From Lama guanicoe (lineage: Eukaryota): DNA of 64,000 nucleotides. How positions within the stretch are numbered: the stretch's first letter is position 1; every line of letters begins with the position of its first letter. A program made the position numbers and the translations under genes. The DNA lies in the NCBI GenBank assembly GCA_013239625.1, contig MU053513.1, positions 1,476,927 through 1,540,926 on the forward strand, in the 5' to 3' direction. The notes under the pieces were generated by a model. That model was not told where the DNA came from. It ran no database searches and saw nothing but the letters and a program-made list of their open reading frames with translations. This document shows, one piece after another, positions 656 through 48,597 of this stretch.

Positions 656-3115
656 ACCAAAACCAGGCAAAGACACTACAAAAAAAGAGGATTATAGGCC
701 AATATCACTGATGAACATAGACGCCAAAATCCTCACCAAAATTTTAGCAAATAGAATCCAACAACACATAAAAAAGATTATACATCATGACCAAGTGGGG
801 TTCATCCCAGGGACACAAGGCTGGTTCAACATACGCAAATCAATCAATGTAATACATCACATCAACAAGAGAAAGGACAAAAATCACATGATCATCTCAA
901 TCGATGCAGAAAAAGCATTTGATAAAATTCAACACCCATTTATGATAAAAACTCTCACCAAAGTGGGTATAGAGGGAACATATCTCAACGTAATAAAAGC
1001 TATATATGACAAACCTATAGCCAGCATAGTTCTCAACGGTGAAAAACTCAAAAGCTTCCCACTAAAATCTGGGACAAGACAAGGATGCCCACTATCACCA
1101 CTCCTATTCAACATAGTCCTGGAAGTCCTAGCCACAGCAATCAGGCAAGAGAAAGAAATAAAAGGGATCCAAATTGGAAAAGAAGAGGTAAAAGTGTCAT
1201 TATATGCTGACGACATGTTACTATATATAGAAAACCCTAAAAGGTCCACAAAAAAGCTACTAGAGCTGATCGAAGAATTCAGCAAGGTAGCAAAATTAAT
1301 GTTCAAAAATCAGTTGCCTTTCTTTACACTAACGATAAATCAACAGAAAAAGAAAGTAAAGAAACAATCCCCTTTAAAATAGCACCCAAAGTAATAAAAT
1401 ATCTGGGAATAAATCTAACCAAGGAGGCGAAAGAATTATACACAGAAAACTATAAACCATTGATGAAGGAAATTAAAGAAGACTTTAAAAAATGGAAAGA
1501 TATTCCATGCTCTTGGATTGGAAGAATCAATATTGTTAAAATGGTCACACTGCCCAAGGCAATCTACAGATTTAATGCAATCCCTATCCAATTACCCAGG
1601 ACATATTTCACAGAACTAGAACAAATCATAATAAAATTTATATGGAACCATCAAAGACCTAGAATTGCTAAAGCATTACTGAAGAGAAAGAAAGAGGCTG
1701 GAGGAATAACTCTCCCAGACTTCAGACAATACTATAGAGCTACAGTCATCAAGACAGCATGGTATTGGTACCAAAACAGACATATAGACCAATGGAACAG
1801 AATAGAGAGCCCAGAAATGAACCCACAAACTTTTGGTCAACTCATCTTCGACAAAGGAGGCAAGAATATACAATGGAATAAAGACAGTCTCTTCAGCAAA
1901 TGGTGTTGGGAAAACTGGACAGCAGCATGTAAAACAATGAAGCTAGAACACACCCTTACACCATATACAAAAATCAACTCAAAATGGATTAAAGACTTAA
2001 ACATAAGACAAGATACAATAAACCTCCTAGAGGAAAACATAGGCAAAACATTATCTGACATACATTTCAAAAATTTTCTCCTAGAAGAAATAAAAGCAAG
2101 AATAAACAAATGGGACCTAATGAAACTTACAAGCTTCTGCAGAGCAAAGGAAACCAGAAATAAAACAAGAAGAAAACCTACGGAATGGGAGAAAATTTTT
2201 GCAAGTGAAACCGACAAAGGCTTGATCTCCAAAATATATAAGCAGCTCATACGACTCAATAAGAAAAAAATAAACAACCCAATCCAAAAATGGGCAGAAG
2301 ACCTAAACAAGCAATTCTCCAAGGAAGACATACAAATGATCAAAAAGCACATGAAAAAATGTTCAATATCACTAATTATCAGAGAAATGCAAATCAAAAC
2401 TACAATGAGGTATCACCTCACACCAGTCAGAATGGCCGTCATTCAAAAATCCAAAAATGACAAATGCTGGAGAGGCTGTGGAGAAAGGGGAACCCTCCTA
2501 CACTGCTGGTGGGAATGCAGTTTGGTGCAGCCACTATGGAAAACAGTGTGGAGATTCCTCAAAAGACTAGGAATAGACTTACCATATGACCCAGGAATCC
2601 CACTCCTGGGCTTGTATCCAGAAGGAAATCTACTTCAGGATGACACCTGCACCCCAATGTTCATAGCAGCACTATTTACAATAGCCAAAACATGGAAACA
2701 GCCTAAATGTCCATCAACAGGTGACTGGATAAAGAAGAGGTGGTATATTTATACAATGGAATACTACTCAGCCATAAAAACCGACAACATAATGCCATTT
2801 GCAGCAACATGGATGCTCCTAGAGAATGTCATTCTAAGTGAAGTAAGCCAGAAAGAGAAAGAAAAATACCATATGAGATCGCTCATATGTGGAATCTAAA
2901 AAACAAAAACAAACAAACAAACAAAAACAAAGCATAAATACAGGACAGAAATAGACTCATGGACAGAGAATACAGACTTGTGGTTACCAGGGGGGTAGAG
3001 GGTGGGAAGGGATAGACTGGGATTTCAAAATTGTAGAATAGATAAACAAGATTACACTGTATAGCACAGGGAAATATACACAAAATGTTATGATAAATCA
3101 CAGAGAAAAAAAAAA
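656..3115 (+). mobile_element. Young LINE-1, 5'-truncated (ORF2 RT and C-terminal domains plus partial 3'UTR), with 16-bp TSD
   Basis: ORFs 711-1382 and 1460-2899 are L1 ORF2 ([33 protein letters not shown]). TSD AAGAAAATTACCAAAT at 640-655 and 3116-3131, preceded by TT (L1 endonuclease TT/AAGA site). A-tail at 3106-3117. Confidence 0.97.
711..2899 (+). pseudogene. L1 ORF2 fragment with one frameshift near 1292
   Basis: Frame shifts after ...FSKVA. The downstream frame reads [13 protein letters not shown]...[11 protein letters not shown], consistent with loss of ~7 bp from the conserved SKVAGYKIN motif (inferred). Endonuclease domain absent. Confidence 0.9.
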
Positions 3116-36714: not shown

Positions 36715-37400
36715 GGTTTTATTATGATATAACTGATATAAATCGCCACATAAGTTAAAGGAATGCAGCATGATGATTTGACCGAAGTACATCATGAAGT
36801 GATTACCACAATAAGTTTAGTTAACATCCATCATCTCCGAGAGATACCAAAAATAGATATTTTCCCTTGTAATAAGAACTCAGGATTTACTCTCTTAACA
36901 ACTTTCAAATATATCACACAGCAGGGTTAACTATAGTCACCATGCTATGCCTTGCACCCCTGGTACTCATTTATCTTAGAACTGGAAGTTTGTATCTTTT
37001 GACCACCCTAACCAGCTCCCTCTCCTCCACCCCCAACCTCTGGTAACCACAGATCTGTTCTTTTTTTCTAAGAGTTTGGTTTTGGGTTGGGTCCCCCCCA
37101 CCTCACCTGCTTTGTTTTGTTTTTAGATTCCACAGGTAAGTGAGATTTCACAGTATTTGTCTCTCTCTGACTTATTTCACTTAGCATAATGCCCTCAAGT
37201 CTCATCCATGTTGTCACAAATGGCAAGATTTCCTCCTTTTGTGGCTGAAGAATATCCCATTGTATGTATATCTCAACTTCTTTGTTCATTCACCTGCCCA
37301 TAGGCACTTAGGTTATTTCCACTTCTTGGCTATTGTGAATAATGCTGCTACAAACAAAGGGGTGCAGATACCTCTTCAATATAATGTCTTCATTTCCTTC
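36715..37400 (-). mobile_element. Older L1 3' end
   Basis: Antisense L1 3'UTR and ORF2 end (ORF 37068-37289: EILPFVTTWMRLEGIMLSEISQRE). Confidence 0.88.
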
Positions 37401-37588: not shown

Positions 37589-38207
37589 AAAAACCTAAGA
37601 GGCAGGGTTTTTTTAATAAGCTGTAGGACCATTAAGCTACCTCTAGTATGATGAAATATAGTGGATAAAATATTTGATAAAATATTTCAAAATAATTTTA
37701 AACCATACTTACGACGAACTTTGCAATAACTTGGGGAAATCTGTTTCTATATTTACTGAAAAAATAGTACATAAATTTTATATTACAATCACAACTGTTT
37801 TTACAAAAATCTCTACACAGGACAGGTAAAGGGAGAAGTGTATGTTAACACAATTATAATAAAATATTTACGGCAGAATTTAGGTGCAAGGTATAGAAGT
37901 GCTCACTAAGAAGCCTTTCAACTGTGCTGCATGTTTGAAAATCATAATAAAATATTAGGGAGAGGAATCTCTACACAGACAATGGAAGAAAACGTAAAAC
38001 ATAGTAGATACATTCAAGTTGGAGAGAAAGTTTTTGGGGTTTTTTAGGTTTTTTTGGTTTGGGGGGGAGATTTTGTTTTGTTTTGTTTTTTGTTTTTTAC
38101 CTCGGGCTTGTTTAATGCAGTAAAACTATGCTTGAATTATAAACTCTGTAAGCTCATGGGTAACAGCTATATTTTGGAAATTATTTCCTAAGCCATTAAG
38201 AAACACT

Positions 38208-38884
38208 AGGGAAACAGTGTGGAGATTCCTCAAGGGACTGGGAATGGACTTGCCATGTGACCCAGGAATCCCACTCCTGGGCTTGTACCCAGAAGGAAAT
38301 CTACTTCAGGATGACATCTGCACCCCAGTGTTCATAGCAGCACTGTTTACAATAGCCAAAACATGGAGACAGCCTGGATGTCCATCGACAGGTGACTGGA
38401 TAAAGAAGATATGGTATATCTGTACAATGGAATACTACTCAGCCATAAAAACTGACAACATAATGCCATTTGCAGCAACATGGATGCTCCTGGAGAGTGT
38501 CGTTCTGGGTGGAGTGGGCCAGAGAGAGAAAGAAAAATACCATATGAGATCGCTCATATGTGGAATCTAAAAAACAAAAACAAACAAACAAACAAAAACA
38601 AAGCATAAATACGGGACAGAGATAGACTCATGGACAGAGAGTGCAGACTTGTGGTTACCAGTGGGGGGTAGACTGGGATTTCAAAATTGTAGAATAGATG
38701 AACAAGATTGCACTGTATAGCACAGGGAAATATACACAAAATGTTATGATAAATCACAGAGAAAAAAATGTGACAATGAGTGTGTATATGTCCATGAATG
38801 ACTGAAGAATTGTGCTGAACACTGGAATTTGACACAACACTGTAAAATGATTATGAATCAATAAAAAATGAAAAAAAAAAAAAA
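38208..38884 (+). mobile_element. Young L1 3' end (ORF2 C-terminus plus full 3'UTR), A>G hypermutated
   Basis: Aligns with 2541-3105; AATAAA and poly(A) present; TSD AAGAAACACT at 38198-38207 and 38885-38894. Confidence 0.96.
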
Positions 38885-38897
38885 AAGAAACACTCTA

Positions 38898-39066
38898 GGG
38901 GAGAGGGTATAGCTCAGCGGCAGAGCGTGCGCTTAGCATACACCAGGTCCCGGGTTCAATCCCCAGTACCATCATTAAAAAATTAAATAAAATAAAATAA
39001 AATAAGCAAAACCTAATTACCTTCCCCAACAAATTTTAAAATGTGCAAAAAAAATTTTATAAAATC
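38898..39066 (+). mobile_element. tRNA-derived SINE
   Basis: Full head and tail; TSD AAGAAACACTCTA at 38885-38897 and 39067-39079. Confidence 0.93.
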
Positions 39067-40051
39067 AAGAAACACTCTAATGTCTTCAGCTCTTTGAACA
39101 GTCATAGTATTATAGTCAAGAAAGGAGGAAAGCTGCCCTTGGAGCGCGTTTCCCCAGTGAGAGGAGAAACCAAGTGCTCAGGAAACAGGACTTCACTGAT
39201 AGTCCCCACATACCTGGAGGCTGTGTGTCCCCCTCGCCTTAGGCGGTCTTGCTTGGAGATCTTAGCCCCAGCCCCATCTGAACCACGCCTCGCTGCAGAG
39301 AAGTCCCAAACCTTTGCTTCCATCCCTGAATTCTCTCACAAGTTCCAGGAAGAGGGGACAAGTCTTCTAGCTTGTGTTCTGTTAGCATCTCAACCAGCAT
39401 GTCCAGGAACCAAACACCACGTTCCCTTTTGAAGAAATTGCTACTCCTTCGCCCACTGTCACCACTGCCATTAGTGATGCGATCACTCTCCCTGTTCCTT
39501 TCTCTTCCTGCCTGGGTACCAAATGCTGCCTCCCCTTGATTCTACCTTTGCAATCTCTCTAATCCACTCCTTTTCATTTCCTCCTCACTGCCCCCATGTT
39601 GTTTCCTTCATCTCCAAGTCTAGTCAGCAAACTCTCCCCCAAAGGCACATGGGGTTTCTCTTCCTAAAGCCCAGCTCTGATCCTATTGGGTAGTGAGACA
39701 AGAGGACCAGGAAGCTCCCTTCCATTCTCTGAGACTGCCTGTGTCATTCCCATATGTGAAAATACTCCCTGGGTCACCAGTGCATCTCTTAAAAACTCTA
39801 AACCCTAGTCTGGCATTCTGATTCGAAGTACCCCTGGTGCCCAGATGGCTGTACTTCTCTGCACTAACACTGTGCCCTCATAAATCTAACCACTCACAAT
39901 GCCATCTTTCCTCCTTCCTACCTTTGCCCAGGATAATTTCCTCCTAATCACCAGCTCCACCATCTAAATCTCCCTCCGTCCAGGCTCCTCCCTCCATGAA
40001 ACCCTGTGCCCCCAAGCGGAAGCGGTACCTCCACTCCCCAGAGCCTCCTGC

Positions 40052-47963: not shown

Positions 47964-48597
47964 TTTTTCATAGAGAATATATTTATCTATCTAAAGTGAG
48001 ATTTTAGAAAACTATTATTGACTAACAAATGTTTTTTCTCTTCTTTCACTTCACTAAAAAATAAATTTTTAAAGTGTCTTCAGTCAGATTATAGAGGGGT
48101 CACGTTAAGTGTAGACCCCAGATGCAGCCAGCTTTATTATTTCACAAATGATTTTTTTAACATTTTTTATTGATTTATAATCATTTTACAATGTTGTGTC
48201 CAATTCCAGTGTTCAGCACAATTTTTCAGTCATACATGGACATATACACACTCATTGTCACATTTTTTTCTCTGTGATTTATCATAACATTTTGTGTATA
48301 TTTCCCTGTGCTATACAGTGTAATCTTGATTATCTATTCTACAATTTTGAAATCCCAGTCTATCCCTTCCCACCCTCTACCCCCCTGGTAACCACAAGTC
48401 TGTATTCTCTGTCCATGAGTCTATTTCTGTCCTGTATTTATGCTTTGCTTTTGTTTGTTTGTTTTTGTTTTTTAGATTCCACATATAAGTGATCTCATAT
48501 GGTATTTTTCTTTCTCTTTCTGGATAACTTCACTTAGAATGACATTCTCTAGGAGCATCCATGTTGCTGCAAATGGCATTATGTTGTTGGTTTTTAT
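47964..48597 (-). mobile_element. Young L1 3' end (48152-48597) with 3'-transduced sequence (47969-48151)
   Basis: L1 part is nearly identical to the reverse complement of 2774-3105; 17-bp TSD ATGGTTAGATATATTTT at 47947-47963 and 48598-48614. Confidence 0.92.

Follow-up and report, generated by a model that had tools for sequence, protein, structure and literature searches.

An L1 fragment in the genome of Lama guanicoe raises the question of whether edits made in an RNA can become heritable DNA. The window analysed here is a stretch of 64,000 nucleotides from the assembly GCA_013239625.1 (contig MU053513.1, forward strand, positions 1,476,927 to 1,540,926), and the fragment, referred to as the focal copy, differs from its relatives mostly by A>G changes on the L1 sense strand. 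The original prediction for this locus held that an L1 RNA was hyper-edited by ADAR and then retrotransposed. Our analysis supports this proposal: its sequence-level predictions on spectrum and strand, derived Gs, 5' neighbours, clustering, boundaries, privacy of the Gs, and insertion hallmarks were borne out.

Structure and insertion of the focal copy

The stretch from 38208 to 38884 on the plus strand is the 3' fragment of a 5'-truncated L1 (Table 1). Its start had been placed at 38208, which takes in three bases of the target-site duplication (TSD); the L1 itself runs from 38211. We found hallmarks of target-primed reverse transcription (TPRT) in this copy: a poly(A), a TSD, an endonuclease-like target (TT/AAGA), and 5' truncation. 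The TSD and the poly(A) had both been described as intact. This holds for the poly(A), which is 16 nt long and contains no G, but not fully for the TSD, which is present and imperfect. Its two copies of 13-14 bp, AAGAAACACT--AGG and AGAAACACTCTAGG, show a 2-bp CT difference.

The motif AGAAACACT(CT)A was found three times, as the two TSD copies of the L1 and again at the 3' end of an adjoining tRNA-derived SINE (Table 1). The focal L1 and this SINE used one common endonuclease target, TT/AAGAAACACTCTA. Which of the two inserted first is ambiguous, since the GG that follows the 5' TSD of the L1 may derive from the head of the SINE or from the L1. About 100 bp on the 5' side of the insertion site, the window also holds a G/T-rich low-complexity tract (38020-38100, T runs with G).

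An indel of about 15 bp relative to a sister copy in the window had been noted, and it proved to be a 15-bp deletion in the focal copy. One G>T (38662) and one A>G (38668) both fall on the deletion junction. The direct repeats at this junction, GGGGTAGA and GGGATAGA, are near-identical. Since an A>G in the second repeat would make the pair identical, slippage of the template on an edited RNA is conceivable.

Table 1 Features of the focal L1 copy and its surroundings, and further A>G-rich L1 copies. Positions without a contig name are those of the window.
Feature	Position	Strand	Basis and details
5' TSD copy, AAGAAACACTAGG	38198-38210	+	direct reading; TT in front (TT/AAGA, L1-endonuclease-like); without the CT of the 3' copy
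L1 ORF2, C-terminal 119 codons, start inside ORF2	38211-38570	+	translation; open as far as the TAA at 38568-38570; 23 of the 31 A>G
A>G cluster 1, 6 sites	38234, 38235, 38240, 38246, 38252, 38257	+	panel comparison
A>G cluster 2, 9 sites including 38516 and 38517	38492-38524	+	panel comparison
L1 3'UTR	38571-38870	+	8 A>G: 38613, 38621, 38641, 38643, 38668, 38700, 38710, 38807
15-bp deletion junction, private to the focal copy	38662-38668	+	alignment with all other family copies; direct repeats GGGGTAGA / GGGATAGA
Poly(A) tail, 16 A, zero G	38871-38886	+	direct reading
3' TSD copy, AGAAACACTCTAGG	38886-38899	+	direct reading
tRNA-derived SINE, flank control	38898-39066	+	directly 3' of the L1; compared with 14 family copies
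Third copy of the target motif, AGAAACACTCTA, equal to the 3' TSD of the SINE	39068-39079	+	direct reading
Further copy L067	C12521:6165404-6166152	-	31 A>G, 2 T>C
Further copy L075	C1064:3419116	+	35 A>G, 4 T>C
Further copy L062	C3031:6225434	+	30 A>G, 3 T>C
Further copy L065	C4172:1322888	-	32 A>G, 3 T>C
Further copy L095, young family	C3175:8491186-8491875	+	32 A>G in 37 differences
Further copy L094, young family	C55231:12671925-12672620	-	17 A>G in 22 differences

Substitution spectrum and polarity

We compared the focal copy with a family panel of 29 copies, comprising the best 27 genome copies (7 loci and 20 regions) and two copies from the window, and polarised the differences by the majority in each column. 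The focal copy differs from the panel majority at 37 positions. These are 31 A>G, 2 C>T, and one each of G>A, T>C, G>T, and T>A, so that A sites changed to G in 31 cases and never to T or C. The pooled spectrum of the 29 ordinary panel copies is balanced, and the share of A>G is 31/37 in the focal copy versus 11/68 in the pooled panel (Fisher p=1e-11). The changes are also asymmetric between strands, with 31 of 288 A sites changed versus 1 of 141 T sites (p=5e-5). The alignment is ambiguous at two of the A>G sites, one on the 5' junction (38211) and one on the junction of the deletion (38668), and at least 29 of the 31 are robust. The A>G hypermutation of the focal L1 is confirmed, far above chance, for the Gs as they are read in the assembly.

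Against the sister copy (2541-3105), 28 A>G changes and 6 other substitutions had been reported. The skew stood, and the numbers shifted slightly: over 560 bases we counted 29 A>G and 7 others, the latter being 2 T>C, 2 C>T, 2 G>T, and 1 G>A.

The panel has A at the positions where the focal copy has G. This was the case for every covering panel copy at 29 of the 31 sites (18/18 to 29/29) and for 28 of 29 copies at the other two, and G is therefore the derived state. The same polarity had been drawn from the third copy in the window (48152-48597, minus strand), which was said to have A at 14 of 15 such sites. In our recount it has A at 16 of 17 and T at 38516, and the derived state of the Gs holds.

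Private changes number 0-5 per copy (0-0.7%) in the 27 genome copies and the sister, and 12 in the older third copy. With the A>G changes set aside, the focal copy diverges by 0.9% (6/674 positions). Judged by the sequences of its members, the L1 family of the focal copy is very young. Three of these members (L025, L026, and L028) show the same three private change types, C>T, G>A, and A>T, and may represent a minor sub-lineage within the family.

The spectrum bears on several processes known to produce directional changes. APOBEC3 editing, CpG decay, and GC-biased gene conversion had been argued not to fit, and we agree, given 1 G>A, 2 C>T, and 31 A>G versus 1 T>C. Clustered sense-strand G>A of the APOBEC3 type is absent from the focal copy, where G>A accounts for 1 of 37 differences. 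ADAR editing of the DNA strand in an RNA:cDNA hybrid was rejected as well, as it would give T>C on the sense strand, the opposite of the data; a paper on such editing in RNA:DNA hybrids appears among the references of PMC6035798.

Search for copies sharing the G set

The Gs could instead have been inherited, with the focal copy belonging to an ordinary but unsampled L1 subfamily or being a product of gene conversion. Some of the sites do vary between older subfamilies, with G at 38807 in 25 of 29 older-panel copies and at 38508 in 13 of 25 pattern-selected copies. However, the focal copy differs from the young family at only 6 of 674 positions once A>G is left aside, whereas the older subfamilies are 71-90% identical and carry many transversions. 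The near-uniform A of the young panel at the 31 sites, detailed above, also argues against inheritance.

No copy with the focal G set was found among the best 39 other scored copies of 6957 genome candidates, all of which are about 92% identical to the focal copy, or in a search with the 37-mer of cluster 2. With up to three mismatches, this 37-mer matched only the focal copy and a copy at C12521:6165767, inside the span of L067 (Table 1). The latter is an older L1 of another subfamily, with 73-76% identity. Compared with 29 relatives of its own, it has 30 A>G and 4 T>C, against 3-12 A>G in those relatives. This excess makes it an independent case and no relative of the focal copy. An ordinary subfamily had been named beforehand as the outcome that would overturn the RNA-editing proposal; no copy with the focal G set turned up in these searches and the rest of the focal copy matches the young family, and we regard inheritance of the Gs as very improbable.

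Neighbour context, clustering, and boundaries

We then considered the bases next to the changed sites. In the ancestral state, the 5' neighbours of the 31 A>G sites are T 13, A 12, C 3, and G 3. Counts of 13, 11, 3, and 1 had been given for 28 sites, and the order is upheld. When the numbers of available A sites are taken into account, the focal edit rate by ancestral 5' base is 0.265 for T, 0.100 for A, 0.048 for C, and 0.053 for G (chi2 p=8e-4). The test of spectrum and 5' context against the family that had been proposed for this copy thus came out in the direction expected, with 31/37 A>G and the rates just given. In five hypermutated copies pooled, with the ascertainment region left out for four of them, the rates are T 0.207, A 0.147, C 0.085, and G 0.043 (p=1e-6). 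Pooling three young-family copies gave T 0.228, A 0.124, C 0.064, and G 0.064 (p=9e-5). On the 3' side, the rate is highest before G in all three sets (0.152, 0.163, and 0.138), a difference that is non-significant in each (p=0.46, 0.22, and 0.7). According to excerpts of two published sources, ADAR disfavours a 5' G, and hyper-editing sites are depleted of G upstream and enriched for G downstream (PMC8586724, PMC4365171). The 5' order of T>A>C~G in the focal copy matches the ADAR preference as described in those excerpts (PMC8586724, PMC4365171).

The changes are clustered. Gaps of 6 nt or less between changed sites were observed 14 times versus 7.6 expected (p=0.004), which agrees with the clustering described in the original prediction. 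The cluster quoted there, ctGgagaGtgtcGttctGGgtgGagtGGgccagaGag, lies at 38490-38526, and 9 of the 15 A sites in this interval changed. No A>G occurs after 38807, and the last 77 nt of the L1 are unedited.

The changes also appear to stop at the boundaries of the element. There is no A/G difference between the two TSD copies and no G in the 16-nt poly(A). A skew extending past the TSDs had been named as a sign against RNA editing, and we looked for it in the SINE next to the L1. This SINE differs at 15 positions from the majority of 14 copies of its family, never by A>G, a comparison of low power since it covers 97 positions.

Within the element, an A-rich (CAAA)n tract just past the ORF2 stop (38561-38605) is unedited in the focal copy. 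In the homologous columns of the five hypermutated copies, 2 of 113 A sites are edited, and both flanks are hot. It is possible that the tract forms a loop of variable length within the duplex.

Context and boundaries also bear on error-prone synthesis at or after insertion, either by pol eta-like mutagenesis at WA sites or by misincorporation by the L1 reverse transcriptase under dNTP imbalance. Such synthesis would share two properties with the data, in that 25 of 31 changed sites have a 5' T or A, versus 169 of 288 A sites overall, and in that the changes are limited to the newly synthesised element. Pol eta-dependent A:T mutagenesis in somatic hypermutation also gives substantial A>T and A>C. 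These are nearly absent here, the counts of A>G, A>T, and A>C being 31, 0, and 0 in the focal copy, 32, 1, and 0 in L095, and 17, 1, and 1 in L094. Dislocation-type errors of the reverse transcriptase would favour A beside G, yet A after a 5' G is the least edited in the five-copy pool. The dense clusters of sites separated by long unedited stretches also speak against it. We therefore consider error-prone synthesis unlikely, though it is the foremost of the alternatives to ADAR editing of the RNA.

Further L1 copies with A>G hypermutation

We searched the genome with two degenerate G-rich patterns and examined 35 further loci. A genome-wide scan for A>G-skewed copies had been proposed; run in part, it yielded six more copies, whose changed sites are mostly private with few shared hot spots. 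Six further L1 3' fragments from several subfamilies carry strong, independent A>G hypermutation on the sense strand (17-35 A>G versus 0-4 T>C; Table 1). With the focal copy included, the genome holds at least seven such L1 copies. The six were chosen via G-rich patterns and do not imply a population-level excess of A>G over T>C outliers. The older copies among those scored were polarised with their 7 nearest neighbours, which are 4-7% distant. Of the seven hypermutated copies, four are in plus and three in minus orientation on their contigs, and in each of them the A>G changes fall on the L1 sense strand. Among 56 copies picked by similarity alone, none has an A>G excess. We checked four of the other hypermutated copies for insertion marks. 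Three show a recognisable TSD together with an A-tail, and the fourth, L075, is unclear. One of the six shares its contig with the window, at a distance of about 1.9 Mb.

Several candidates were set aside. Weak or ordinary ones were L091 (11 A>G, 4 T>C, p=0.59), L093 (14 and 2, p=0.06), L092 (16 and 1, p=0.009), and L096 (5 A>G in 12 differences), and three more were weak with distant reference copies, namely L064 (13 A>G, 2 T>C), L063 (20 and 2), and L066 (17 and 1). In addition, three older-panel copies among the 56 picked by similarity show a mild sense-strand excess of T>C over A>G (L057, 10 versus 3; L056, 13 versus 8; L060, 7 versus 3; p=0.006-0.04, uncorrected for 86 tests). This excess is probably noise.

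We next asked how far the edited sites are shared. In five copies, 86 of 114 edited sites are private. Sites edited in at least two of the five copies show no excess (28 versus 26.5 expected, p=0.39), whereas sites edited in at least three do (9 versus 3.2 expected, p=0.002). Outside the ascertainment region the latter excess is borderline (5 versus 2.1 expected, p=0.05). Positions 38516, 38517, and 38621 are hot spots, with G in 5/5 hypermutated copies; at these positions, all but at most two copies in each of three ordinary groups have A. The edited segment varies by copy, spanning 38211-38710 in the focal copy and 38641-38845 in L095.

A matched test with patterns for a second region, searched with 1 mismatch, compared two hot sites with two control sites in copies that agree elsewhere over 35 nt. 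Single changes were more frequent for T>C at the control sites (24) than for A>G at the hot sites (5), while double changes were found twice for A>G and never for T>C. As doubles were seen for A>G only, the A>G changes come in linked sets. The second-region patterns searched with 0 mismatches gave 1 match (the focal copy) versus 0 for the control and were uninformative. An exact strand control (AA-to-GG 7/8862 versus TT-to-CC 0/2857) was discarded, given its unequal denominators, a non-significant difference, and about 8 doubles expected by chance.

These further copies help to weigh a process acting locally after insertion, such as a transcription-associated A>G asymmetry or RNA-templated repair from edited transcripts paired with nearby inverted L1s. 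The setting would allow it, as two inverted L1 fragments lie less than 10 kb away and cover focal positions 38316-38584 (70% identity) and 38445-38879 (89%). The distribution of the changes does not follow these fragments. The cluster at 38211-38257 (7 sites) is outside both inverted pieces, and the last 170 nt, which the 89% copy covers, hold 1 edit. The abutting SINE shows no A>G in its 15 differences, about 11% of the A sites changed versus 0.9% (6/674) for all other classes together, and the same footprint is found at six other loci, on both strands and always in the L1 sense. A local process is accordingly a very doubtful explanation.

An assembly or sequencing artefact might be suspected, because the assembly is fragmented (2.05 Gb in 55231 contigs). 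It would have to produce one substitution type on one strand, with a neighbour rule and a stop at the element boundary, and similar copies on both genomic strands with A>G always in the L1 sense. This is highly improbable. Of sampled words, 0.60-0.72 occur in 19 sequencing runs (8 studies, 6 organism codes), a share of which flanks and unedited L1 alone could give about 0.6, so that it does not discriminate between the bases at the G sites.

A proposed route from edited RNA to DNA

The best reading of the focal copy is ADAR hyper-editing of an L1 RNA followed by TPRT, to which we assign a probability of roughly 0.8 from sequence evidence. It draws on the spectrum, the strand, the derived state of the Gs, the 5' context, the clustering, the boundaries, the privacy of the Gs, the hallmarks of TPRT, and the recurrence in other copies. 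According to this model, the 3' part of a young-family L1 transcript would form double-stranded RNA. An ADAR enzyme, probably ADAR1 to judge by the signature, would then deaminate it promiscuously, at about 11% of adenosines and up to 60% in clusters. The RNA, edited before reverse transcription, would still serve as the TPRT template. Inosine would be read as G, giving a 5'-truncated copy at TT/AAGAAACACT with about 30 heritable A>G changes on the sense strand.

The duplex partner would most likely be antisense L1 RNA or an inverted L1 fragment within the same transcript. We found no support for an intramolecular duplex within the L1: the fold of its 3' RNA is like that of shuffled sequences (z=0.11), and a search for long internal inverted repeats gave longest arms of 16-17 nt. 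This leaves, as the probable partner, antisense L1 RNA or an inverted fragment that is part of a longer transcript. Either partner would account for the variation of the edited segment between copies. As a counterpoint, the cold A-rich tract (38561-38605) is not obviously predicted by a perfect sense-antisense duplex. The two inverted L1 fragments near the focal copy, at 37111-37369 (minus strand, 70% identical to parts of it) and 48152-48597 (minus strand, 89%), are those mentioned above. Transcripts across them could form double-stranded RNA with the focal copy today.

On balance, we lean slightly towards a wider claim, that ADAR hyper-editing of L1 RNA may be a recurrent source of heritable mutation in this mammalian germline and that the edited RNAs remain templates for retrotransposition.

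If the proposed route is correct, copies such as the focal one would show directly that L1 RNA encounters catalytically active ADAR in cells contributing to the germline, and that an L1 RNA edited by ADAR can sometimes still insert. RNA editing would pass into heritable DNA in a single step. Fixed L1 copies would then form a fossil record of ADAR activity in the germline or early embryo and of the duplex partners of L1 RNA, in which the hot spots at 38516, 38517, and 38621 and the differing edited segments would mark sites of duplex formation. Edits in the RNA of any retrotransposed transcript could reach the DNA by this route, which might also contribute to the divergence of L1 lineages. The footprint can easily be screened for in any genome, which would make its frequency, the lineages in which it occurs, and the L1 duplexes formed in vivo testable.

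Relation to known systems

A full-text literature search, in which subscription journals were thinly covered, found no ADAR-type footprint in fixed L1 copies, and a prior description is possible. The closest parallel is a different deaminase. Carmi et al. 2011 reportedly described DNA-editing footprints of APOBEC3 in retroelements. Footprints of this kind, seen as G>A, have been reported in the genomic retroelements of vertebrates (Knisbacher & Levanon, Mol Biol Evol 2016, PMC4866542). As far as excerpts of that paper show, the two systems are alike in that a host deaminase acts within one replication cycle, the element is still inserted into the germline genome, and transitions of one type form a dense cluster that is unidirectional and strand-specific (PMC4866542). 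They differ in substrate and signature: APOBEC3 converts C to U on first-strand cDNA and leaves G>A, whereas the focal L1 carries A>G that would have arisen on the RNA template with the ADAR neighbour rule. In the excerpted methods of the same paper, A-to-G is used merely as the reverse direction for exclusion (PMC4866542).

ADAR-linked A-to-G hypermutation is known from exogenous retroviruses, namely RAV-1, avian leukosis virus, and HTLV-2/STLV-3, according to excerpts of a review (PMC8586724). As described there, these cases resemble the focal copy in that an edited RNA is reverse-transcribed, inosine becomes G, the changes are clustered and strand-specific, and a 5' G is disfavoured (PMC8586724). 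The retroviruses, however, are infectious and were edited in somatic cells or culture, whereas the focal copy is an endogenous non-LTR L1 that would have inserted by TPRT, is part of a germline assembly, and has counterparts across L1 subfamilies. A further review, in the portion available, states that the role of ADAR in the evolution of retroelements 'has not yet been determined' (PMC4982230).

The hyper-edited RNA clusters of Porath et al. 2014 (PMC4365171), going by excerpts of that paper, are RNA-DNA differences in which the genome keeps A, whereas here the G is in the genome. In the cell-culture work of Orecchini et al., Sanger sequencing of ectopic L1 RNA detected no A-to-I editing, and the excerpted text attributes the restriction of L1 by ADAR1 and ADAR2 largely to editing-independent effects (PMC5224506, PMC8677026). 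Within what these excerpts cover, ADAR proteins meet L1 RNA in the L1 ribonucleoprotein, a point shared with the proposed route (PMC5224506, PMC8677026). Unlike those cell-culture experiments, the copies described here suggest that L1 RNA is edited in vivo and that this editing does not always block insertion.
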